DNA of 64,000 nt from Somniosus microcephalus (Eukaryota). The translations under genes were made by a program, and so were the position numbers. The stretch lies in contig CM126210.1 of assembly GCA_052327205.1 (NCBI GenBank), positions 57,350,001-57,414,000 of the forward strand. The letters are read 5' to 3'. The notes beneath the pieces were generated by a model. That model did not search any database, was not told where the DNA came from, and worked only from the letters and a program-made list of their open reading frames with translations. Position 1 is the first letter of the stretch. Every line of letters starts with the position of its first letter. Below, piece by piece: positions 616 to 62,779 of the stretch.

Positions 616-2110
616 CATGGAAACATAGAAACATAGAAAATAGGAGCAGGAGTAGGCCATTCAGCCCCTCGAGCCTGCTCTGCCATTTAATGAGATCATG
701 GCTGATCATCCAAACTCAGTACCCTGTCCCTGCCTTCTCCCCATATCCCTTGATCCCTTTAGCCTTAAGAAATATATCTAACTCCTTCTTGAATATATTT
801 AATGAATTGGCCTCAACTGCCTTCTGTGGTAGATAATTCCACAGGTTCACCACTCTCTGGGTGAAGAAATTTCTCCTCATCTCTGTCCTAAATGGCTTAC
901 CCCTTATCTTTAGACTGTGACCCCTGGTTCTGGACTCCCCTGCCATCGGGAACATCCTTCCTGCATCTAGGCTGTCTAGTCCTGTTAGAATTTTATAAGT
1001 TTCAATGAGATCCCCTCTCATTCTTCTAAACTCCAACAAGTATAAGCCCAATCGACCCAATCTCTCCTCATACGTCATTCCTGCCATCCCAGGTATCAGT
1101 CTGGTGAATCTTTGCTGCACTCCCTCCATGGCAAGAACATCCTTCCTCAGATAAGGTGACCAAAGCTGCACACAATACTCAAGTGTGGTCTCATCAAGGC
1201 CCTGTACAACTGCAGCAAGACATCCTTGCTCCTGTACTCGAATCCTCTCGCTACGAAGGCCAACATATTATTTGCCTTCTTAACCGCCTGCTGCACCTGC
1301 ATGCTTACTTTCAGCGACTGGTGCACAAGGACACCCAGGTCTCATTGCACTTCCCCTTCTCCCAATCTATTGCCGTTCAGATAATAATCTGCCTTCCTGT
1401 TTTTGCCACCAAAGTGGATAACCTCGCATTTATCCACATTATACTGCATCTGCCATGCATCTGCCCAATCACCCAACCTGTCCAAATCATACTGGAGTTT
1501 CTCTGCATCCTCCTCACAGCACACACGCCCACCAAGCTTTGTGTCGTCTGCAAACTTGGAGATATTACATCTAGTTCCCTCGTCTAGATCATTAATATAT
1601 ATTGTGAATAGCTGGGGTCCTAGCACCGATCCCTGTGGTACCCCACTAGTCACTGCCTGCCACTTGGAAAAAGACCTATTTATTCCAACTCTTTGCTTCC
1701 TGTCTGCCAACCAGTTCTCTATCCAAGTCAGTACCTTACCCCCAATCCCATGTGCTTTAACTTCACACGCTAATCTCTTATGCGGGACCTTATCGAAAGC
1801 CTTCTGAAAGTCCAAATACACCACATCCACTGGTTCTCCCTTATCTATTCTACCAGTTACATCCTCAAAAAATTCCAGTAGATTAGTCAAGCACGATTTA
1901 CCTTTTGTAAATCAATGTTGACTTTGTCCGATCCTGTCACTGTTTTCCAAGTGCTCTGCTATTACATCTTTTATAAGGGACTCTAGCATTTTCCCCACTA
2001 CCGATGTCAGGCTTACTGGTCTATAATTCCCCATTTTCACTCTACCACCTTTTTTGAATAGTGGGGTAATATTAGCTACCCTCCAATCCATGGGAACTGT
2101 TCCAGAGTCT
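616..2110 (-). mobile_element. Young 5'-truncated CR1 LINE (HER1-like), RT domain with premature stop
   Basis: ORFs 1342-1890 and 716-1171 carry YLDFQKAFDKV, SGVPQGSVLGP, KFADD; (TTCTATGT)n tail; TGA at 1342 where the sister copy has CGA. Confidence 0.96.
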
Positions 2111-2959: not shown

Positions 2960-4495
2960 AGAATTATCTGAGAAGGTAACCATATGGTGGATATGGAAAA
3001 TGAAGTGGATGTAATGTACATGGACTTTAAAAAGCCTTTGACAAGGTACCACATGGGAGATTATCAGAGGAGGTTAAGGGATATGGAATTAGGGAGAGGA
3101 TAGCAAACTGGATTAAAATTTGGCTAGAAGGGAGTTAAAGCAGATTTTCAGCATGGTTTGGAAGGTGTGTTCAGTTCCATGTGTGTACCAATGATTTGAT
3201 TGGCCCTGAAATTAGGATCGGGAGCTTGCCGCGCGTGCAAGCCCCCGATGTGCACTCACCTGGCTCGCCGACATCTGAAGCCCGGGCCTGCTTGCATTTC
3301 CTGTCCCTGGCCCGGTTCCGATGTCGGCGCGATGTGCTTACCTGATCCAGCGGCGTAGTTAGTGCGATGTGCCAGCTGGGATCAGGTGAGCACTCTGCAG
3401 CCAATCAGGGGAGGGGAAACTCATTCATGAGTTTGACAGTAAGAACTGTCAAACTCATGAAAAGTATGGGCTGCCAAAACACTACTTAAACTTTAAATAA
3501 AATTTAAAAAAACATCCCACTGATTATATATTGACTATAAATAAGTTTAAAAAAATATTTTAAACAATTAATCAAATTTTTGAAAAAAATAAATTTTTTA
3601 AAAATAGGGTCTAAAACTAAACTTACCTTACTGTAAATTCTTTAAAAATAATAAACCTGTGGAAACAAAATTTCTAAATTGTACTAAAAGATCACTTAGC
3701 TGTAAAACTAAGTACTTACGTCTGGTTTTTCCACGTGTAAAAACTGGAGGCCTTTACACTCGGGCAACTCTGGAAAAAAAAAGGAATTTCACTGCGCACG
3801 CGCTGCCTGTGCAGTCGCATGTGTTCTGCCTCTTAACCCTTTGGGTCAGAGGACAGGAAATGCCGGTTTTCAGCGCATGCGCTGTGCATGCTGAAAACCG
3901 GCAATTCCTCTGGGCACACGCGTGAGTACCCCGTCCGTACTCACGCGTTGTGACAGGAATTACTGGGCCAATATATCCTTGAGGGAGTGGCGAAATTTGC
4001 AGCTGATAGGAATTATGGAGAACCAAAGGAAACCAGAAAGGGAGATTGATCAGATGGGGAGCGGGCTAAAAATGATAGATGGAATTCAGTGACAGGAAGT
4101 GAGGTTATACATTTTGATTTTTAAAAAAATCAGTAATTATACTCTAGGCCCAGTGCTGTGGAAGAGCAGAGGTATTTGAGGTACAGGTTCATAGGACTGT
4201 AGAGGCAGGACCTCAGTATGATAAGGCTGTAAAAATAAGCTAATGGAATTCTAGGTTTTATCACAAGGGTTATTGAATATAAAAGCCAAGAGGTAATGAT
4301 GAGCCGATATAATACCTCAATAAGACCTCAGTTAGAACACTGTGTGCAGTATTGGGCACCACTCTATAGGTAGGATATTGAGCCTTTGGAGAAGGTACAA
4401 TACAGATTCACTAAGATACTCCCTGGTTTGAGGAAAACACCAATATGGACTAGTTGGACCAAATGGGATGTTTCTGTGTTGTAACGTCTCGCTAT
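2960..4495 (+). mobile_element. Old degraded CR1 fragment interrupted by a MITE
   Basis: Recognisable remnants of VDVMYMDFKKAFDKVPH and RPQLEHCVQYWAP on either side of 3202-3969. Confidence 0.75.
3202..3969. mobile_element. Multi-hairpin MITE, copy A (Harbinger-like TIR)
   Basis: TIR GGCCCTGAAATT / AATTACTGGGCC; GC-rich hairpin arms around an AT-rich core; homologous to 46403-47111. Confidence 0.85.
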
Positions 4496-9211: not shown

Positions 9212-10590
9212 CATAGAAACATAGAAGATAGGAGCAGGAGTAGGCCATTCGGCCCCTCGAGCCTGCTCCGCCATTCAATGAGATCATGGCTGATCATCCA
9301 AATTCAGTACCCTGTCCCTGCTTTCTCCTCATATCCCTTGATCCCAACATACCATTTGCCTTCTTAACCGCCTGCTGCACCTGCATGCTTACCTTCAGCG
9401 ACTGGTGCACAAGGACATCCAGGTCTCGTTGCACTTCCCCTTCCCCCAATCTATTGCCATTCCGATAATAGTCTGCCTTCCTGTTTTTGCCACCAAAGTG
9501 GATAACCTCACATTTATCCACATTATATTGCATCTGCCATGCTTCTGCCCAATCACCCAACCTGTCCAAATCATCCTGGAGTTTCTCGGCATCCTCCTCA
9601 TAGCACACACGCCCACCCAGCTTTGTGTCATCTGCAAACTTGAAGATATTACATCTAGTTCCCTTGTCTAGATCATTAATATATATTGTGACTAGCTGGG
9701 GTCCTAGCACCGATCCCTGCAGTACCCCACTAGTCACTGCCTGCCACTCGGAAAAAGACCCGTTTATTCCAACTCTTTGCTTTCTGTCTGCCAACTAGTT
9801 CTCTATCCAAGTCAATACCTTGCCCCCAATCCCATGTGCCTTAACTTTACACTCCAATCTCTTATGTGGGACCTTATCGAAAGCCTTTTGAAAGTCCAAA
9901 TACACCATATCCACTGGTTCTCCCTTATCTATTTTACCAGTTACATCCTCAAAAATTCCAGTAGATTAGTCAAGCACGATTTACCTTTTGTAAATCCATG
10001 TTGACTTTGTCCGATCCTGTCACTGTTTTCCAAGTGCTCTGCTATCACATTCTTTATAATGGACTCTAGCATTTTCCCCACTACCGATGTCAGGCTTACC
10101 GGTCTGTAATTCCCCGTTTTCTCTCTACCACCATTTTTGAATAGTGGGGTTATATTAGCTACCCTCCAATCCATGGGTACTGTTCCAGATTCCATCGAAT
10201 GTTGGAAGATGACCAGCAATGCATCTACTATTTCTAGGGCCACTTCCTTAAGTACCCTAGGATGTAGATTATCAGGCCCTGGGGATTTATCGGCCTTCAA
10301 TCCTGTCAATTTCCCTAACACCATTTCCCTACAAATACTGATTTCTTTCAGTTCCTCCCTTTCATCATAAGAACATAAGAAATAGGAGCAGGAGTAGGCC
10401 AATCGGCCCCTCGAGCCTGCTCCGCCATTCAATAAGATCATGGCTGATCTGATCCTAACCGCCAATCAGACCCTATGTTCCCCGACATCTCTGGTAGGTT
10501 ATTTGTGTCCTCCTTTGTGAAGACAGAACCAAAATATGTATTTAATTGGTCTGCCATTTCTTTGTTCCCCATTATAAATTCCCCTGAATT
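9212..10590 (-). mobile_element. Young CR1 LINE, same subfamily as 616-2110, with ~0.5-kb internal deletion at ~9345
   Basis: ORFs 9294-9794 and 9941-10465 (KSPGPD, NYRPVSLTSV, QHGF, KFADD); near-identical to the 616 copy. Confidence 0.96.
10366..10467 (-). mobile_element. ~100-bp CR1 3' tail nested inside the CR1 ORF
   Basis: cataagaacataagaaataggagcaggagtaggcc... interrupts the otherwise continuous ORF2. Confidence 0.85.
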
Positions 10591-18455: not shown

Positions 18456-19069
18456 AAAAGCACGATGGGTGCCACCAGGGCTGCTCTCGATTGAGCTGAG
18501 GAAGAGGATGAGAATGAGGATCAACAGCAGCAAGGGTGTGCTGTGGAGGGAGCTACAGGTGGCCAGCAGAAAAGGAAGCAACAGAGGCTTGCAGAAGGAG
18601 CTACCCACCTAACAAGATTGACAGACATAGGTTCAGCTTCCTTGACCTGTCGGAGGAGCAGTGCTTCCCGAACTGAGAGTGACATGTCAGGTGATCGCAG
18701 ACATCTGCAACTTCTGAGAAGACGACCTGCTGGACCTGGCGGACACGCATTACAAGTAGCTGTGAAAGTAACTACCGCCCTTAATTTTTTTGCGTCCAGC
18801 TCCTTCCAGGCCACCGCCGGAGACACAGCAAGGGTGTTGCAGCCAGCTGTTCATAAATGCATAAGGCAGGTGACGGATGGATTGTTTGCCAGGGCTGAGA
18901 GGTATATAAACTTCCCTGTGATAACAATAGCCAGAATTAGCGGGCACTGGGATTCGCGTCTCTGGCTGGCTTACCACAGGTGCAGGGTGCCATCGAGTGC
19001 GCACACGTTGCAATTCGAGCATCCCCTGACCAACCAGGAGCATTCGTCAACCGCAAGGATTTCATTCAT

Positions 19070-19980
19070 AATAACATAAGAAATAGGAGCAGGAGTCGGC
19101 CATTTGGCCCTTCGAGCCTGCTCCACCATTCAATAAGATCATGGCTGATCATCTTCCTCATCTCCACTTTCCTGCACTATCTCCATATCCCTTGATTCCC
19201 TTTAATATTCAAAAGTCTATTGATCTCTGTCTTGAATATACTCAGCGACTGAGCCTCCACAGCTCCCTGGGGTAGAGAATTCCAAAGATTCACCGCCCTC
19301 TGAGTGAAGAAATTTCTCATCTCAGTCCTAAATGGCCGACCCCTTATTCTGAGACTGTGACCCCCGGTTCTAGACTCCCCAGCCAGGGGAAACATCCTCC
19401 TTGCATCTACCCAGTCAAGCCCTGTAAGAATTTTGTATGTTTCAATTAGGTCACCTCTCATTCTTCTAAACTCTAAATAGAGGCCTAGTCTACTCAATCT
19501 CTCCTCATAGGATAATCCCCCCACCCCAGGAACCAGTCTGGTGAACCTTCTTTGCACTCCCTCTATGGCAAGTATATCCTTCCTTAGGTAAGGAGACCAA
19601 AACTGTGCACAATACTCCAGGCGTGGTCTCACCAGGGCCCTATATAATTGCAGTAAGATGGCTTTACTCTTAAACGCAAATCGTCTTGTAATAAAGGCCA
19701 ACATACCATTTGCTTTCCCAATTACTTGCTGTACCTGCATGTTAACTTTCAGTGATTCATGTACAAGGACACCCAGGTCCCTCTGAACACCAACATTTCT
19801 CAATCTCTCACCATTTAAAAAATACTCTGCTTTTCTATTTTTCCTATCAAAGTGGATAACTTTACATTTCTCCTCTTTATATTCCATTTGCCATGTTCTT
19901 GCCCACTCACTTAGCTTGTCTATATCCCCTTGAAGCCTCCTTGCATCCTCCTCACAACTTACATTCCCACCCAGCTTTGT
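19070..19980 (-). mobile_element. CR1 LINE 3' fragment inserted in the transposase
   Basis: ORF 19177-20019 is CR1 ORF2 C-terminus; tail at 19070; ATTC occurs at both junctions. Confidence 0.95.
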
Positions 19981-20022
19981 AAAAAATTCCATCAATGTGC
20001 AGCTGGTGTGCAACCACAATAA

Positions 20023-21001
20023 AATATATTAATGATCTAGGCAAGGGAACTAGATGTAATATCTCCAAGTTTGCAGACGACACAAAGCTGAGTGGGCGTG
20101 TGTGCTGTGAGGAGGATGCCGAGAAACTCCAGGATGATTTGGACAGGTTGGGTGATTGGGCAGAAGCATGGCAGATGCAGTATAATGTGGATAAATGCGA
20201 GGTTATCCACTTTGGTGGCAAAAACAGGAAGGCAGATTATTATCGGAATGGCAATAGATTGGGAGAAGGGGAAGTGCAACGAGACCTGGGTGTCCTTGTG
20301 CACCAGTCGCTGAAGGTAAGCATGCAGGTGCAGCAGGCGGTTAAGAAGGCAAATGGTATGTTGGCCTTCGTAGCGAGAGGGTTTGAGTACAGGAACAAGG
20401 ATGTCTTGCTGCAGTTGTACAGGGCGTTGGTGAGACATCATCTTGAGTATTGTGTGCAGTTTTGGTCGCCTTATCTGAGGAAGGATGTTCTTGCCATGGA
20501 GGGAGTTCAGCGAAGATTCACCAGACTGATACCTGGGATGGCAGAAATGACGTATGAGGAGAGATTGGGTCGATTGGGCTTGTACTCACTGGAGTTTAGA
20601 AGAATGAGAGGGGATCTCATTGAAACTTACAAAATTCTGACAGGACTGGACAGACTAGATGTAGGAAGGATGTTCCCGATGGTCGGGGAGTCCAGAACCA
20701 GGGGTCACAGTCTCAGGATAAGGGGTAGGCCATTTAGGACAGAAATGAGGAGGAATTTCTTCACCCAGAGAGTGGTGAACCTGTGGAATTCTCTACCACA
20801 GAGGGCAGTAGAGGCCAATACATTAAATATATTCAGGAAGGAATTGGATATATTTCTTAATGCTAAAGGGATCAAGGGGTATGGGAAGAAAGCAGGGACC
20901 GGGTACTGAATTTGGATGATCAGCCGTGATTGCATTGAATGGCGGAGCAGGCTCGAGGGGCCGAATGGCCTACTCCTGCTCCTATCTTCTATGTTTCTAT
21001 G
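20023..21001 (+). mobile_element. Young CR1 LINE 3' fragment (intact frame) inserted in the transposase
   Basis: ORF to 20909 from YINDL to GTGY*; tail ttctatgtttctatg; TAAAA occurs at both junctions. Confidence 0.96.
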
Positions 21002-21709
21002 TAAAAGGTTCATGCAGGTCTGCGCCAGATTCCCTGGGAGCTGCCATGATGCTTTTGTACTGCGGCAGTCCAACATTCCTGATCTGAAACGATCCTTAAA
21101 GGTTGGCTGCTAGGTGACATGGGTTACCCCCTTCAAACCTGGCTGATGACACCTCTAAGGAACCCCACCAATGAACACCAGGAGCGGTGCAGCACAAGCC
21201 ATATGTGTCATCGAGCGAGCCATCGACATGCAGAAGCTGCACATCAGGTGCCTGGACAGTTTTGGAGGCACCCCTCAGTACTCACCAACGAGGGTCTCCA
21301 GGGTAATCGTGGTCTGCTGTGTTCTGCACAACATAGCGCAGCAGTGAGGACCAGAGGTGGAGGAGGAACAACCACTCATCACTCATCATCTGATGAGGAT
21401 TCCAATGGTGAGGAGGAAGATGGGGCCAATGCAAGACCAACCGATCACATTGCTGCTCGAGATGCCAGGGATGCCTTGATAGCTCGAACGTTCAGTTAGT
21501 CACTCAAACTGGACCAATGTCACAATAACATCCCTCTCCCCACCTCACGCAAGTAGTCCTGTAACCATCCATCGACTGTTTCCACATCCACCAGTTGGTG
21601 TCAGTCAAATCATCTCTCCACATTCAACACCAAACAAATGAAAAGCACAGTTGGCACTCGCCATTCAAGAATGGGGAGCATAGGAAAGTGGTGCGAATTC
21701 ATAAATTTA

Positions 21710-22371: not shown

Positions 22372-25300
22372 CTATAAAGCTTTTCTTTTCCTATCACTGG
22401 CCCTTCTACATGGTGCTATCTCTATGGCTTCAGCAGACGTAGAGGCAGGCTGCTCTGTTCCTCTGGGTGTTGGGGCCCATGAGGGCCCTGCCAAAGACTG
22501 CTCCACCTGCACCTGAAGAGGCAGCATGTCAGCTACTGGTTGAGGTGTGTCAACAGGTGAGAGGGGCTGACGTTTTGAGAAGAGTGCACACTTTCATCTC
22601 CCTTATTAGCATCCTCCCTGCCCTGGGCTAGCAGCACATCACTGTTGCCTCCCTGCTGGAGAACAGCTTGGAGAATCTATCTTTCTTAGGTCCAAAGTGG
22701 ATGACCTCACACTTTCCCACATTAAACGCCATCTGCCAACATTTTGCCCACTCACCTAATCTATCAATGTCCCTTTGCAACTTTCTGCTCCCATCTACAC
22801 TATTTACTCTGCCACTTAACTTAGTGTCATCAGTAAACTTAGATATACAGCTCCCTATTCCTTCATCCAAGTCATTTATAAATTTAGTGAAAAGCTGCAC
22901 CCCGGTACAGATCCCTGGGGGACACCACTAGTCACATCCGGCCAGTTTGAGTACCTACCCATTATCACTACTCCCTGTTTCCTGCCTCCAACCCAATTCT
23001 CTATCCAAGCCAACAGCTTGCCTCCAATTCCGTGCGCTCTCATAGGAACAGGAGGAGGCCATTCAGCCCCTCGAGCCTGTTCCGCCATTCAGTGAGATCA
23101 TGGCTGATCTGCGATCTAACTCCATATACCCACCTTTGGCCCATATCCCTTAATACCTTTGGTTAATAAATTAACAATTGATCTAGCATCAATTGCCGTT
23201 TGCGGAAGAGAGTTCCAAACTTCTACCACCCTTTGTGTGTAGAAGTTTTTCCTAATTTCACTCCTGAAAGGTCTGGTTCTCATTTTTAGACTATGCCCCC
23301 TAGTCCTAGAATCCCCAACCAGCGGAAATAGTTTCTCTCTATCTACCCTATCTGTTCCCCTTAATATCCTGAAAGCTTCGATCAGGTCACCCCTTAACCT
23401 TACAAATTCTAGGGAATACAACCCTAATATGTGTAATCTCTCCTCGTAACTTAATCCTTGAAGTCGGGGTATCATTCTGGTAAACCTACGCTGCACTCCC
23501 TCTAAGGCCAATATATCCTTCCTAAGGTGTGGTGCCCAGAACTGTTCACAGTACTCCAGGCGTGGTCTAACCAGGGTTTTGTATAGCTGCAGCATAACTT
23601 CTACTCCCTTGTACTCTAGTCATCTAGATATAAAGGCCAACAATCCATTAGCCTTTTTGATTATTTTCTGTACCTGTTCATGACATTTTAATGATCTATG
23701 TACCTGGACCCCCAAGTCTCTTTGGACCTCCACTGTTTTTAGCTTTTCACCATTTAGAAAGTACCCTGTTCTATCCTTTTTAGGTCCAAAGTGGATGACC
23801 TCACATTTGCTTACATTGAAATCCATTTCCCACAGTTTTGCCCATTCACTTAATCTGTCAATATCCCTTTGTAATTTTATGCTTTCATCTACAGTGCCAC
23901 CTATCTTTGTGTCATCGGTAAATTTCTTCTGCCACTCAGACAATTTCCGAACCAAGTCAATAATTTGCCCTCAATTCCATGGACTAATACCTTAGTTAAC
24001 AGTCTCTTATGTGGGACTTTATCAAATGCCTTCTGGAAGTCCATATAAATAACATCCATAGACATTCCCCTGTCCACTACTTTAGTCACCTCTTCAAAAA
24101 ATCAATATAGATAACATCCATAGACATTTACTTATCTACCACATCTGTTAACTCCTCAAAAGATTCAACTTGGTTTGTTAGACATGATTTACCCTTTACA
24201 AGTCCATGCTGGCTCTCTGATCATAATGTTCAAATGCTCTTGTGATATCTATATATCTAGAGGACTAATGGGCCTATAATTTCCTAGTTTATCTCTCCTA
24301 CTCTTCGTAAATAATGGAGTGACATTGATACCTTGCACAGTTGCTGCTGAGCCTCCAGTTTTAATTGATAGCTCCCGCTGGGTTCAGCTCTCTGTCCAGC
24401 TGAGCAGAGCTTGGAGAGGATGGCGCACTCTGACGAGGACTCTCCACAGCTGTCCCTGTCATCATTCTCTCTCTGCTCATGTTTGTGTCGTGTGATTCAC
24501 CAGGTAACATCCCACCTAACTGTCTAAGAGGATCCACCGTTGTTCGTATCTGTGCTGGTTCCTGCAATGCATGTGTCCTGTAATGATGCGGCCTCAGCAG
24601 GAATCAGCTCTTCTGAGGAATCCTCGTCATTTCTGGGTATAGGCTCGTTATCTTTGCATGATGGCCCTGGAGAAGAGAGGAGACGGATAAGATTTAGACA
24701 TGGAACTTTACAAATGTTGAAATACACATGATGAAAGTGATCATATTTGATAAAGTGCTGAAGTCAACTCAAGATGACATTGTGTAGGAAATGTGGGTCT
24801 GAGAGATTAACTCTGTCACCCTGATGCAATGCACTACCAATTTCGACATCTCCAATACATATAGGGAGGCAGATTCGCCGCTAATCTCCAAAGCCAAGTA
24901 ACCTCTGCCAGGTAAAGCTCCACGATCTTGTGGGGGTTGGTGTGGGGGGTGTGGGGTGGGGGTGGTGTCTGCCTCTGGTCCTCGCCCTCTCCCTGGCATT
25001 CTGTGCTCTCTTCTGCAAGGGTGGCATGACAGACCTATGATTGGCTCTGAGGCATGTAAGTATCCAATGGATGTAGTGTATTAGGTGAGGGTGATAATCA
25101 GGCAAATGCATCACGAGTGCCACTGGCAGCATTTGAGGACATGTTGACGGTGCCATTTGAGGACGTGTGCTGAGAATCAAGGGAGATCACTGATCAGATT
25201 ACTTGAGGATTGGGGTGACTAACAGTTGTGGATAGAGGAAAGTAGAGGTCAGAATGTGCACTGAAATGGAACGATGGGTGCTGCTGAAAGTGAAGTGGGT

Positions 25301-43869: not shown

Positions 43870-44327
43870 AAAGAATGAAAGAACTTGCACTGATATAGTG
43901 CCTTTTGTGTCCTCAGGACGCCCCAAACCACTTTCCAGCTAATTGCATAGCTTTTGAAGTACAGTCACTGTTGTAATGTAGGAAATGCGGAAGAAAATTT
44001 GCATCACAGCAAGGTCCCACAAACAGCAAAGAAATAATGACAAGATACTCTGTTTTCTAGTGATATAGGTTGAGGGATAAATATTTGCCAGGATACCAAG
44101 AGAACTCCTTTGCTCTTCTTTGAATAATGCCACGGGACCTTTTACGTCCACCTGAGAGGGCAGATGGGACTTCGGTTTAACGACTCATCCAAAAGACGGC
44201 ATCTCCAACAGTGCAGCACTCTCTCTGACCTGCACTGAAGTGTCAGCCTAAATTATGTGCTCCGGTCTGCAGTGAGGCTTGAACCCACGACCTTCTGACT
44301 CGGAGACGAGAATGCAACCACCGGAGC
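43870..44327 (-). mobile_element. Full-length Deu-domain SINE (SacSINE1/AmnSINE1-type): tRNA head, Deu core, L2-type tail
   Basis: Reverse strand has B-box GGTTCAAGCC and Deu core gtgctgcactgttggagatgccgtcttttggatgag..ttaaaccga..ctctcaggtggacgtaaaagg. Confidence 0.85.
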
Positions 44328-46350
44328 AGTCAGTGATGAAGAGGATACTGTCAGAATTTGTGGGAATATAGTCAGTGATGGAGAGGATACTGTCAGGGTT
44401 GGTGGGGATATAGTCAGTGATTGGTGGGAATACAGTCAGTGATTGGAGGGAATACAGTCAGTGTTTGCAGGAAATACAGTCAGTGTTGGGGAATACAGTC
44501 AGTGTTGGGGATACAGTCAGTGTTGGGGAATACAGTCAGTGTTGGGGAATACAGTCAGTGTTGGGGAATACAGTCAGTGTTGGGGATACAGTCAGTGTTG
44601 GGGAATACAGTCAGTGTTGGGGAATACAGTCAGTGTTGGGGATACAGTCAGTGTTGGGGAATACAGTCGGTGTTGGGGAATACAGTCGGTATTGGGGAAT
44701 ACAGTCGGTGTTGGGGAATACAGTCAGTGTTGGGGAATACAGTCAGTGTTGGGGAATACAGTCAGTGTTGGGGAATACAGTCAGTGTTGGGGAATACAGT
44801 CAGTGTTGGGGAATACAGTCAGTGTTGGGGGTTCCGTCAGTGTTGGGGATACGGTCAGTGTTGGGAAATACAGTCAGTGTTGGGAAATACAGTCAGTGTT
44901 GGGGATACAGTCAGTGTTGGGGAATACAGTCAGTGTTGGGGAATACAGTCAGTGTTGGGGGATACAGTCAGTGTTGGGGAATACAGTCAATGTTGGGGAA
45001 TACAGTCAGTGTTGGGGAATACAGTCAGTGTTGGGGGATACAGTCAGTGTTGGGGAATACAGTCAGTGTTGAGGAATACAGTCAGTGTTGGGGATACAGT
45101 CAGTGTTGGGGAATACAGTCAGTGTTGGGGATACAGTCAGTGTTGGGGGTACAGCCAGTGTTGGGGGTACAGTCAGTGTTGGGGAATACAGTCAGTGTTG
45201 GGGATACAATCAGTGTTGGGGATACAGTCAGTGTTGGGGAATACAGTCAGTGTTGGGGAATACAGTCAGTGTTGGGGATACAGTCAGTGTTGGGGATACA
45301 GTCAGTGTTGGGGATACAGTCAGTGTTGGGGAATACAGTCAGTGTTGGGGAATACAGTCAGTGTTGGGAAATACAGTCAGTGTTGGGGATACAGTCAGTG
45401 TTGGGGAATACAGTCAGTGTTGGGAATACAGTCAGTGTTGGGGAATACAGTCAGTATTGGGAATACAGTCAGTGTTGGGGATACAATCAGTGTTGGGGAT
45501 ACAGTCAGTGTTGGGGAATACAGTCAGTGTTGGGGAATACAGTCAGTGTTGGGGATACAGTCAGTGTTGGGGAATACAGTCAGTGTTGGGGATACAGTCA
45601 GTGTTGGGGAATACAGTCAGTGTTGGGAAATACAGTCTGTTGGGGATACAGTCAGTGTTGGGGAATACAGTCAGTGTTGGGAATACAGTCAGTGTTGGGG
45701 GATACAGTCAGTGTTGGGGATACAGTCAGTGTTGGGGATACAGTCAGTGTTGGGGAATACAGTCAGTGTTGGGGAATACAGTCAGTGTTGGGGAATACAG
45801 TCAGTGTTGGGGATACAGTCAGTGTTGGAGATACAGTCAGTGTTGGGGAATATAGTCAGTGTTGTGGATACAGTCAGTGTTGGGGATACAGTCAGTGTTG
45901 GGGAATACAGTCAGTGTTGGGAAATACAGTCAGTGTTGGGAATACAGTCAGTGTTGGGGGATACAGTCAGTGTTGGGGATACAGTCAGTGTTGGGGGATA
46001 CAGTCAGTGTTGGGGAATACAGTCAGTTTTGGGGAATAAAGTCAGTGTTGGGGATACAGTCAGTGTTGGGGAATACAGTCAGTGTTGGGGAATACAGTCA
46101 GTGTTGGGGATACAGTCAGTGTTGGGAAATACAGTCAGTGTTGGGGAATACAGTCAGTATTGGGGATACAGTCAGTGTTGGGGAATACAGTCAGTGTTGG
46201 GGAATACAGTCAGTGTTGGGGAATGCAGTCAGTGTTGGGGAATACAGTCAGTGTTGGGGAATACAGTCAATGTTGGGGATACAGTCAGTGTTGGGGAATA
46301 CAGTCAGTGATTGGAGGAAATAATGCCCGTAAAGGAGAGAATACTGTCAT
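44328..46350 (+). repeat. Minisatellite with 18/19-bp unit GGGGA(A)TACAGTCAGTGTT, roughly 100 copies
   Basis: Directly visible; homogeneous core ~44470-46310 with degenerate units at both edges. Confidence 0.98.
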
Positions 46351-46402: not shown

Positions 46403-47111
46403 GGCCCAGAAATTCGGGTCGGGGGCTTCCCGCGGGTGTAAGCCTCCGACCTGCACTTACCTAGCGCGCCGGCCGTTGAGCTGTGGGCCCGCGTGGGATT
46501 CCGATCCTGGGCCTGCTCCAACTGCCGGCACGCAGTGCTTGCATATCCCAGGGGCACAGTTAGTTCGATGCGTCCCCTGGGATCACGTGGGCCATGGGGA
46601 GCTAATCAGAGCAGGGAAATGCCCATTCATAAGTTTGACAGGAAGAGCTGTCAAAACTTAGAAATACTACGGGCCCCAAAACATCACCAATCTTCAAATA
46701 AATTTTTTTTAATCACTTTTTAAATAAACTATAAATTACATGAAATACATTTTTTAAACAATAATTTAAATTTTTGAAAAAAATAATTTTATTTTCTAAC
46801 GGGGCTAAACATAAACTTAATTAATTTTAATTAATTCACCAATTACTTTGTAAAAAGCAGGCCTTACGCCTGCTTTTTAAATGTGTAACTTCTGGAGACT
46901 TACGCTCCCGGGAAAACTGTAAAAAAAAAAAGTTCGATGTGCACGCGCAGCCTCTCCCGTGCATGCGTTCGACCTCTGAACCCCTTTGTTCAGGGGAACG
47001 GAAGTGCCGGTTTCCCGCGCATGCGCAGTGCATGCAGGAAACCGGCACTTCCATTGGGTCTACGGGTGAGTACCCCGTGCGTACTCACCCGTGGAGACCC
47101 GAAGTTGTGGC
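46403..47111. mobile_element. Multi-hairpin MITE, copy B
   Basis: TIR GGCCCAGAAATTCGGGTC / GACCCGAAGTTGTGGC; colinear with 3202-3969. Confidence 0.85.
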
Positions 47112-48254
47112 AAAGTATTACATAGTCAGTTTCAGAACTGGAACTTTTCATTTTCTGCTTTTTGCCAAGTCATTGGCTCTTTGGTGAGCTACAACTCTGT
47201 CATTGCTGCATTTCATTGTAAAAGGCTGGTGACATAACATAGTATGTAGATTTGTTCAGAAGAGGGTTCAGATTCCTTTGTGTGCTCATTTTAGAGCATT
47301 GTGTTTGTCAAACCCTTGTGTGCTGTATTTTAGTGATGTTTTTGGCCTGTTTTAAACTAAACATGTTAATGATGCTCAAATGGGAACAAGTTAACCACTG
47401 TTCAAGGGGAATTTCCCCTTGGAGAGATTATGCAAACCATAGCTTTAGGAAAAGTTAATACAAATATTTCGATAAGGTACCCACTCACAAACATTGATAC
47501 TCTAGGGGAAACCAAAATGATAGAAGCCTGTAATGTTTTCATTTTAATATATAGAACATAAGCTCTTGTTAGTCCATTTAAGTCCTGATCCTTGACATTT
47601 TGCAGTGCTCAGTAGTTTGTTGATGAATAGATTAATTAACAAACTGCACCAACTAGATTTAACTTTCCCAAACCCTAGCAGGAATGGCTGCCGCCCTTTC
47701 AGCAGACCCAAGTGTGTTTCTGTAGTTCACAAAAAGCTCAGCAGCCCAGTGGCAGATCCTGAAATAGGACAGTTTGGGGTTGAGCAAAGATAGTGATATT
47801 TTTCAAAGTTAAAATCACCCAAATCAAACTGTCACTTTTTATGTGATCCTGCTGCATCTTGTGCAGTCACAGACAGCAATCACTGGCATGCCAATTGCGA
47901 ACCATGTAACCATGCCACCACTCACTCACTGCACACTCCACCAAGCACACCAACTCCTGCTCATGATATTGAATTGTGCTAATGAAAGGGTTAATACCGC
48001 TGTGTATAACATTATCAAATGATTGTCAAAGATTGCTTTAACTGTGTCATGATTCTGTTTTTTGACTGAATTGTTTTAACATTCATCGTGCCAACTTTCC
48101 AGCATTTTTGAATGATTGAAATCATAACTGTTCTGTATCATGTTTTTAAAAGTGCATTGCCTTTATGATTTACGATCTAACATTATATTCCTTCTTTGTT
48201 TTCCTTTCCTGTCCTCTTTCTCTTCCACCATTGGATACCATGTACTGGCATTAG

Positions 48255-59325: not shown

Positions 59326-59867
59326 ATTATCTGGTGGCCACTGTTGGAAAGTGAGCACATGTGGATATCAAGTGAGTACAGGATTGGGCTTGGCTTAGAT
59401 GCCTTTCATGAATAAATAGTCGACCAACACACACAGTTTGTCTTTCACAGGAAGGGGTACCGAAGAATCGCAGATGCCCTGGAAAGGTACTCCAGCATTC
59501 GTTAGAATAAGGAAAATTTAAAAAACCAAAACATTTCAAGCTTGACAGTGCATCTGTGACACCTCCTCGCCACAGTCTTACACCAGAGATTGAGAAACAG
59601 ATACTAAAATAACAAGAAAAAAAATACCAGATCACAGCTCATAAATTACTGTCCTAACTGGCACCTCTGAGTTGAGCAAGAAATGTTTAAAAAGCTATCA
59701 AATGTCCCTTTTAGAAAATGTGCTGCTATTTAAATATTAATGGGTCTAGAATAAGTAAAGGATTCTGTGGCAGTGGTGAATTACTGGACTTTACTTCAGT
59801 TGTGAGAAGGACTCCATAATTCAGTCACCCTGGAATAAAGGTTTTTCACAATGAAGTAAACACAGCA

Positions 59868-62050
59868 AACACCAATGCAATATCTTTACTTAATCCAATA
59901 CAATATCCTCAATAAACCCAATACAATATCCTCATTAAATCAATGCAATATCCTCATTAAATCCAATCCAATATCCTCATTAAACCCAATACAATATCCT
60001 CATTAAACCCAATACAATATCCTCATTAAATCCAATGCAATATCCTCATTAAATCCAATACAATATCCTCATTAAACCCAATACAATATCCTCATTAAAC
60101 CCAATACAATATCCTCAATAAACCCAATACAATATCCTCATTAAATCCAATACAATATCCTCAATAAACCCAATACAATATCCTCATTAAATCCAATGCA
60201 ATATCCTCATTAAACCCAATACAATATCCTCATTAAATCCAATGCAATATCCTCATTAAATCCAATACAATATCCTCATTAAATCCAATACAATATCCTC
60301 ATTAAACCCAATACAATATCCTCATTAAACCCAATACAATATCCTCAATAAACCCAATACAATATCCTCATTAAATCCAAAGCAATATCCTCATTAAACC
60401 CAATACAATATCCTCATTAAATCCAATGCAATATCCTCATTAAATCCAATGCAATATCCTCATTAAATCCAATACAATATCCTCAATAAACCCAATACAA
60501 TATCCTCAATAAACCAATACAATATCCTCATTAAATCCAATGCAATATCCTCATTAAATCCAATACAATATCCTCATTAAATCCAATGCAATATCCTCAA
60601 TAAACCCAATACAATATCCTCATAAAATCCAATGCAATATCCTCATTAAACCCAATACAATATCCTCATTAAACCCAATACAATATCCTCATTAAATCCA
60701 ATACAATATCCTCATTAAACCCAATACAATATCCTCATTAAATCCAATACAATATCCTCAATAAACCCAATACAATATCCTCATTAAACCAATACAATAT
60801 CCTCAATAAACCCAATACAATATCCTCAATAAACCCAATACAATATCCTCATTAAATCAATGCAATATCCTCATTAAATCAATCCAATATCCTCATTAAA
60901 CCCAATACAATATCCTCATTAAACCCAATACAATATCCTCATTAAATCCAATGCAATATCCTCATTAAATCCAATACAATATCCTCATTAAACCCAATAC
61001 AATATCCTCATTAAACCCAATACAATATCCTCAATAAACCCAATACAATATCCTCATTAAATCCAATACAATATCCTCAATAAACCCAATACAATATCCT
61101 CATTAAATCCAATGCAATATCCTCATTAAACCCGATACAATATCCTCATTAAATCCAATGCAATATCCTCATTAAATCCAATACAATATCCTCATTAAAT
61201 CCAATACAATATCCTCATTAAACCCAATACAATATCCTCATTAAACCCAATACAATATCCTCAATAAACCCAATACAATATCCTCATTAAATCCAAAGCA
61301 ATATCCTCATTAAACCCAATACAATATCCTCATTAAATCCAATGCAATATCCTCATTAAATCCAATACAATATCCTCAATAAACCCAATACAATATCCTC
61401 AATAAACCAATACAATATCCTCATTAAATCCAATGCAATATCCTCATTAAATCCAATACAATATCCTCATTAAATCCAATACAATATCCTCATTAAATCC
61501 AATGCAATATCCTCAATAAACCCAATACAATATCCTCATTAAACCCAATACAATATCCTCATTAAACCCAATACAATATCCTCATTAAATCCAATACAAT
61601 ATCCTCATTAAACCCAATACAATATCCTCATTAAATCCAATACAATATCCTCAATAAACCCAATACAATATCCTCATTAACCCCAATACAATATCCTCAA
61701 TAAACCCAATACAATATCCTCATTAAATCCAATGCAATATCCTCATTAAATCCAATACAATATCCTCATTAAACCCAATACAATATCCTCATTAAACCCA
61801 ATACAATATCCTCATTAAATCCAATACAATATCCTCATTAAATCCAATACAATATCCTCAATAAACCCAATACAATATCCTCATTAAATCCAATGCAATA
61901 TCCTCATTAAACCCAATACAATATCCTCAATAAACCCAATACAATATCCTCATTAAACCCAATACAATATCCTCATTAAATCCAATGCAATATCCTCATT
62001 AAACCCAATACAATATCCTCATTAAATCCAATGCAATATCCTTACTAAAT
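59868..62050 (+). repeat. Minisatellite with 23-bp unit AAAYCCAATRCAATATCCTCAWT, about 95 copies
   Basis: Directly visible; three main variable positions. Confidence 0.98.
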
Positions 62051-62779
62051 CTAGCTGTTCTATGATACAAAAAATCAGCAACTACACTCTCAGCAGGGAA
62101 CCTTGCTCCACAGGAACATGAATTGGAGGTAGGCTTGTAGCATGGATTCTCCAAACTGTGATCCCATCCAGCAAGGATTACAGAATACACCAACAAAAAA
62201 CATAAAGACCTGTACAGTGCTTTTAGTGTGGACTCCATTTGATGCCTGCATATCATTGTGTAACAGGAGCACAAAAGCCAAATGTCTTTCTAATTTGGTT
62301 AGAAGCAAAACTAATAATAGGTCTAGGGAGAACTCAAGTGTTGTCACCGTTTATCATTTCAGCAATAAGGCTGAATTCGTTGTCAGATATTTTACGTTAA
62401 GTTTGTTTAAATGATTTGAATTACTTTCTGTTAATGCTGGAACAGATTCATGAGGTTGCAGTGTTTTACTACTGTCCAATTATGTTATTTCATTTTCATT
62501 AGTTTTCATTACTCAACACAATTGAGATGCCTTTGGTATTTCTGCCCCCATGCTGTTCTGTCCTGTATTATATATGCAGTTTTCCTCTGTGTTAATCTAT
62601 GTCTTTCAAATAAGATTTGATCAGAAATATTTGGTCACATTACTTTTCCTGTTAAAAATATATAAATGCAAGTTGTTGTTGTAATGTTTTTCTCTAGCCC
62701 TTCTTTGTATGAAGGTGCTAACTTATTCTGGAGACTCTTCCCACAAGCAGTGGTGGGTCTGTTGTACCTCACCCAAAAG

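Follow-up and report, generated by a model that had tools for sequence, protein, structure and literature searches.

Two stretches of the window (the whole 64,000-nucleotide piece of DNA analysed here) carry series of inverted repeats in the same order, and where the two differ, the arms of a repeat tend to differ together. The question raised by this locus is what keeps the arms matched. A preliminary description of the sequence offered three options, namely a structured RNA, a need for folded DNA during mobilisation, or symmetric sites for Myb/SANT proteins, and named mutation by template switching as a competing explanation.

The element and its coding partners

Both stretches are copies of a MITE of approximately 765 bp that is non-autonomous and derives from a PIF/Harbinger family also present in this genome. 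Copies A and B (Table 1) are colinear, with 68.8% identity over 757 bp in an end-to-end alignment, and hold serial inverted repeats near the positions first proposed; the initial identification as a MITE holds as well, and the element can now be placed in a PIF/Harbinger family with Myb/SANT partners. It is a non-coding DNA element, abundant, with an AWT target. Its copies terminate in GGCCCWGAAATT and its complement, and the TIRs begin with GG, a trait of PIF/Harbinger (PHIS) elements. A 32-letter pattern from the centre of the MITE recurs exactly at least 13,116 times in the 6.4-Gb genome, and the reversed pattern, used as a control, not once.

Logan contigs under further organism labels also contain the family, and literature searches on this MITE family returned nothing. 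Copy A apparently lies within a LINE fragment. Reverse-transcriptase LINE fragments, CR1-type by eye, are numerous in the window (623-2109, 9212-10459, 19067-21002, 22676-24058 and others), and long tandem arrays of short units occupy 44327-46322 and 59849-62051.

Table 1. Features of the two MITE copies, in window coordinates
Feature	Position	Strand	Remarks
MITE copy A	3202..3969	+	Subfamily A, complete; 29 other fetched copies at 95-96% identity with both ends in common
Left flanking triplet ATT	3199..3201	+	Unlike the right one
Right flanking triplet AAT	3970..3972	+	
Left TIR	3202..3219	+	Paired with right TIR at 12/18 in A, 18/18 in B and F
Right TIR	3952..3969	-	Partner of left TIR
Hairpin H1	3217..3249		Also in transposase-bearing elements
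Hairpin H2	3266..3329		Left arm also in long elements, right arm seen only in MITE; broken (7/15 paired) in H and J
Hairpin H3	3334..3393		Loop conserved; seen only in MITE
CCAAT-like box	3401..3405	+	From sequence; name presumed
Hairpin H4	3424..3461		17/17 paired in A; seen only in MITE; loop inverted in 2 genomic copies
AT-rich spacer	3462..3700		z -0.8, no excess structure; two conserved GTAAGT motifs on minus strand
Hairpin H5	3722..3747		Lineage-specific; 8/9 paired in A, 3/9 in B
Hairpin H6	3829..3852		Right arm deleted in subfamily E
Hairpin H7	3855..3909		Inner GCATGC pair; also in long elements
Hairpin H8	3918..3948		Also in long elements; two genomic copies have an inverted loop
MITE copy B	46403..47113	+	Subfamily B; about 46 bp internally deleted, right terminus decayed
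Copy B inverted repeats	46410-46458, 46464-46533, 46851-46879, 46997-47055, 47059-47095		
Perfect 12-bp hairpin	46851..46879		B/F lineage; 5-8/12 paired in other subfamilies

With every Harbinger family pooled, a search of the genome with PF13359 (DDE_Tnp_4) yielded 96,622 first-look candidates, and 20 loci of 10 kb were fetched around top matches. Two-ended elements of 3.3-5.7 kb were recovered at 15 of the 20 loci; three have common flanks, leaving 13 distinct elements. These coding elements and the MITE have in common about 70-100 bases at the start and about 186-257 at the end. Their transposase frame, open over 386 amino acids (PF13359, E 1e-42), points inward from the right end; in L103, the locus examined for it, ORF2 is a Myb/SANT exon (PF13873, Myb_DNA-bind_5, E 3.7e-13; L103:1497-1748) that points inward from the left end. 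The transposase is most closely related to elasmobranch proteins that carry the name "putative nuclease HARBI1" (top three at 59-67% identity), which makes a cartilaginous fish the probable host; because the open frame lies in TIR-bounded, multi-copy elements, the partner is a transposon and not a domesticated HARBI1 gene. MITE positions 105-500 occur in no coding element among the transposase and Myb loci fetched, appearing there only in MITE-like copies (L098, L109 and L264). The related family, whose ends the MITE has in common, may supply the transposase and Myb/SANT protein that mobilise it in trans. H1 and H6-H8 probably derive from coding-element ends, and H2-H4 have been seen only in the MITE.

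The Harbinger load of this genome is very large, with 93,085 first-look candidates for Myb_DNA-bind_5 in addition to those for DDE_Tnp_4. The Myb_DNA-bind_5 search gave mostly another Harbinger family (L236-L260), whose terminus, GGCCTAGAAATT, is similar and whose Myb domain is different; the left end of one member (L239) folds modestly, at z -3.0. Many top transposase matches have open 386-amino-acid frames, and near-identical copies lie on small contigs (L103 and L104, 99.9%). A decayed Harbinger transposase fragment at 18495-19079 of the window is 44% identical over 81 amino acids to the L103 transposase and has no Pfam match. Ahead of the Myb exon, the left ends of L092-L110 hold what we take to be promoter-like motifs (a TGACGTCA palindrome, CACGCCCC repeats and CCAAT), and their right end holds GCGCATGCGC.

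The element resembles PIF/Harbinger (PHIS) transposons and Tourist-like MITEs such as mPing in its short TIRs starting GG(C/G)CC, 3-bp target and very high copy number, and the partners likewise combine a DDE_Tnp_4 transposase with a Myb/SANT ORF. Unlike PIF/Harbinger and mPing, this MITE has seven to eight covarying serial internal hairpins, and over half of its copies have non-matching flanks. According to the accessible portion of PMC4482050, PIF/Harbinger in the narrow sense has a TWA target, whereas the target here is AWT. Pangu, as described there, is alike in its ANT target triplet and GG-initial TIR, but its ORF2 is described without a known motif, whereas ours scores as Myb_DNA-bind_5; NuwaI and NuwaII are alike in having two ORFs (DDE and Myb/SANT), GG termini and animal hosts, but they target CWG and C|TNA|G. 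No PHIS group described in that portion matches the combination of AWT target and Myb/SANT ORF2 seen here.

Hairpins and covariation among subfamilies

Copy A folds far more strongly than 20 dinucleotide shuffles of itself (z -13.4 as plus-strand RNA, -14.9 as minus-strand RNA and -12.1 as DNA). The excess is confined to the GC-rich ends (z -8.7 and -7.5, vs -0.8 for the AT-rich middle; 30 shuffles), and coding-sequence controls fold at 0.0, 0.9 and -0.1 (30 shuffles). Folding is weak at the left ends of coding elements (z -1.4, -1.7 and -3.2) and gives -1.6 at that of subfamily H.

Covariation was assessed in 179 near-full-length copies, drawn from 90 loci that were the best matches to three seeds and 90 taken in order along contig C1. 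They cluster into 10 subfamilies of at least three copies, whose members lie 2-5% from their own consensus and whose consensuses are 6-28% apart (subfamily I aside); a finer split was too noisy, and the 10-cluster level was used. Subfamily I (three copies, L163, L186 and L227) is chimeric, its left part having been swapped for sequence like the inner left region of coding elements. Stem counts omit this subfamily and two singletons, which leaves nine consensuses, and the 108 pairs counted exclude H5, H5a, H5c and the TIR.

Among these 108 pairs, 67 are invariant, 12 are compensatory, 25 changed on one side and 4 changed on both sides without compensation. The 12 compensatory pairs exceed the expectations of two permutation nulls (means 1.9 and 1.5, maxima 8 and 7; 5,000 rounds), which flatter the covariation because the stems were defined on the same sequences and the subfamilies are related. 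Since the subfamilies are related and look mosaic, the 12 are not 12 independent events. Columns varying between subfamilies number 57 of 214 where paired and 102 of 197 where unpaired. In a separate count on 15 real right ends, 15 double-change cells were found vs 6.4 after shuffling (0 of 500 shuffles), and a stricter pair count gave 7 vs 4.8 (42 of 500). Compensations peculiar to a separate coding lineage (L079, L080, L089 and L102) lie in H1, H7 and H8, with adjacent doublets in H1 and H7.

Four of the five examples in which arms had been said to change together are clean compensations at subfamily level (16:48; 70:123, 73:120 and 74:119; 670:694; 721:745). The fifth, the perfect 17-bp stem, is a mixed case: B is compensated at 229:257, but two one-sided breaks lie beside that pair. 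This stem is also polymorphic within subfamily A, whose 38 copies divide at one position into 14 with C, 23 with G and 1 with T. Half-changed pair states have been amplified, in subfamily F at 721:745 and, for H7, in cluster r13, a sister of the separate coding lineage, as have subfamilies with damaged hairpins (H and J for H2, E for H6). The claim that pairing rather than sequence is maintained was therefore overstated: covariation does exceed chance, but most pairs are invariant, several loops are conserved, and 29 of the 41 variable pairs are uncompensated. The preliminary description had passed over these uncompensated changes and the decayed right terminus of copy B. We regard the covariation as real, though loose, and favour an explanation at the level of DNA.

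What maintains the stems

Once inserted, copies decay neutrally. In four subfamilies of 25-39 copies, private non-CpG changes affect 151 of 23,306 stem positions (0.65%) and 164 of 22,631 unpaired positions (0.72%; p=0.34). Across 166 copies, 296 pair cells carry one private change and 3 carry two, and one of the three is compensatory where 1.7 are expected; the paired changes that distinguish subfamilies are thus not private to single copies, a possibility that had been raised at the outset. Stems conserved at subfamily level, equal private rates and chance-level doubles together place the constraint on transposing masters and not on inserted copies. By a hand count, private changes at consensus mismatches restore pairing in 13 cases and fail to in 13, about as expected of ordinary mutation, and an excess of mismatch repair in single copies was rejected on this basis.

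Selection for pairing in a structured RNA made by the MITE is very improbable, and is the least supported of the three options first proposed. Both strands of the element do fold strongly, and RNA reads cover it: in two RNA-Seq runs, from a species label under which the element is found, 1,977 of 16.7 million and 8,269 of 14.4 million reads match, with a strand bias of about 2:1 in the left half in both. However, the reads fall on both strands in all 30 bins, and in run X7 they extend past both termini into mixed flanks (agreement 0.46-0.57); this coverage fits copies embedded in other transcripts. The two runs, which did not sample short RNAs, contain no discrete stranded MITE transcript, and the RNA-read joints listed include none at the GTAAGT motifs. 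Nothing in the window matches Rfam at gathering score, the five weak matches being far below the cut-off. The mismatches in the stems (14 G-T, 8 A-C and 23 other) match neither the pattern of one-strand G-U tolerance nor that of strict Watson-Crick pairing; G-T exceeds A-C by 12:4 in the left half (p=0.08), as an RNA might lead one to expect, but the ratio is only 14:8 overall and is reversed, at 2:4, in the right half. Stems in genomic copies show no constraint, and a cut-and-paste MITE requires no RNA in cis. Significant compensatory covariation can arise in a DNA transposon without RNA, a caution for its use as a signature of structure.

Template switching was sought as hairpins with a reversed loop and intact flanks. 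H4 gave three matches: two true loop inversions, of which one (L280) also repairs a T-G stem mismatch of the nearest subfamily, and one right arm overwritten by the complement of the left. Against 13,116 normal matches for H4 and 1,561 for H8, two loop inversions were found in each hairpin. These four copies are direct evidence of template switching at the stems, a process thereby made visible among thousands of copies. In the part of PMC8794818 available, template switching is described as creating and repairing stems, and compensation with loop inversion as its strongest support; the loop inversion with stem repair and the adjacent compensations seen here are alike, but that work concerns RNA genes under structural selection and ours a DNA transposon.

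It follows that the competing explanation was right in that switching occurs at these hairpins, but in inserted copies it is too rare to explain the pattern alone: with a visible class of roughly 0.02-0.1% of copies per hairpin, switching by itself would not yield 12 compensated pairs out of 41, and added selection or a much higher rate during transposition would be needed, on this rough reckoning. We consider it quite unlikely that mutation is the whole story, with switching during transposition-linked repair perfecting any local quasi-palindrome and the symmetry being functionless. Such a process would account for the inversions and arm-copy event (L279-L283), the adjacent compensations, the stem creation and repair described in the PMC8794818 extract, and lineage-specific perfection in B/F (TIR 18/18, new hairpin 12/12). 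The scarcity of visible switches, the chance level of private compensatory doubles, the far better conservation of stems than of unpaired columns, and the fixation of an inverted loop in no subfamily argue against it.

Alternatively, intrastrand pairing itself may be selected, with DNA hairpins or cruciforms on the strand bearing the 5' end of each terminus aiding excision, synapsis or gap repair. We give this reading limited credence. The long arms of unrelated sequence with variable loops are consistent with it, as are the transversion compensations from C:G to G:C at 27:33, 141:184, 150:174 and 721:745 and the loop inversions, which would fit pairing of the arms in vivo. G-containing mismatches favour the plus strand in the left half (17:9) and the minus strand in the right half (11:4; Fisher p=0.025, in a small, post hoc test), a hint that strand polarity flips between the ends. 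Against folding, the subfamilies with a broken H2 or half-deleted H6 amplified, the left ends of subfamily H and of the coding elements fold weakly, and 23 of the 45 mismatches are neither G-T nor A-C.

Our preferred reading, to which we assign about an even chance, is that symmetric DNA sites are selected in transposing masters only, with paired changes arising by template switching and no structured RNA. Inverted repeats would be retained only while a lineage transposes, masters being selected for symmetric double-stranded sites at their ends that are probably bound by the Myb/SANT protein and transposase or by host factors. A one-sided change could be borne for a time and would sometimes be matched on the other arm through template switching in replication or repair; inserted copies would then decay neutrally, and RNA structure would be unnecessary. 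In favour of this reading are the termini and end blocks common to the MITE and the transposase-bearing elements of 3.3-5.7 kb, the compensations in excess of both nulls and in the separate coding lineage, the lower variability of paired columns between subfamilies beside equal private rates, the amplified half-changed states and the loop inversions. A GTRAGY-type motif, picked by eye and post hoc, occurs 6-8 times per element, vs about one expected, and is found in H3 and H8 arms. However, no single motif runs across the hairpin arms, H2, H4 and H7 being without GTRAGY; arm spacing varies from 4 to approximately 40 bp, and the arms, at 12-19 bp, are longer than one would expect of a dimer site. 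GTRAGY also equals the splice-donor consensus, and some occurrences lie where donors of a transposase leader are expected. Finally, double-stranded sites do not predict the end-flipping mismatch polarity.

Flanking triplets and insertion

The flank asymmetry of these copies is a more testable surprise than the covariation. Flanking triplets are mostly AAT or ATT, within a wider palindromic preference. Among the 179 copies, 149 have intact termini, and dropping two duplicates leaves 147, of which 82 have unlike left and right triplets. In the positional sample, 38 of 70 are unlike, 23 at the centre only, where neutral decay at 2-5% predicts 11-26% unlike and 4-8% centre-only. Unlike triplets are less common around transposase-bearing elements, at 6 of 26, of which one rests on a doubtful parse (p=0.003 vs the MITE).

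Empty-site matches were present in the fetched DNA for 51 copies. Of the 23 distinct copies with at least 10 such matches, 21 show a 3-bp core, the duplication often being imperfect. Flanks are mismatched in 12 of these 21, one side equalling the empty site in 10 and, after allowing for CpG decay, in the other 2; at such well-supported sites one flank is the target and the other is foreign. The foreign triplet is two letters off the target in 5 of the 12. Ordinary mutation could account for four of the single-letter cases, and among the 9 matched cases 2 depart from the majority empty site. One copy (L059) combines a full duplication with three additional letters.

Carry-over of overhangs at non-TTAA sites is known for piggyBac. 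For mPing, the consulted part of PMC4561436 proposes staggered cleavage through the TSD that leaves 5' overhangs. An mPing-type cut would leave donor triplets on the non-transferred strands of the excised element, and these could anneal to the target gap to give one donor-type flank after replication. We regard such carry-over of donor-TSD overhangs as rather likely. PMC4561436, in that same part, deals with excision sites, whereas the signal here is at insertion sites; the literature searched, with few subscription journals covered and PMC4423477 included in part, yielded no such insertion-site signal. The non-matching flanks support the staggered TSD cut at insertion sites and on a genome scale. 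If confirmed, the carry-over matters for the use of PIF/Pong systems in precise insertion and for MITE-finding programs, since those requiring identical TSDs would miss approximately half of these copies.

It is unlikely, in our view, that mobilisation proceeds through partly single-stranded ends, with donor-TSD 5' overhangs annealing to the target gap and hairpins of the 5'-terminal strands selected as folded DNA. If true, a single-stranded-end step, absent for cut-and-paste transposons from the portions of the literature consulted, would unite foreign triplets, flipped polarity and covarying stems.

The family offers a mutational scan of Harbinger ends on a large, natural scale. The MITE also contains its own target motif, and family members are nested in other members at L063, L109, L177 and L214.
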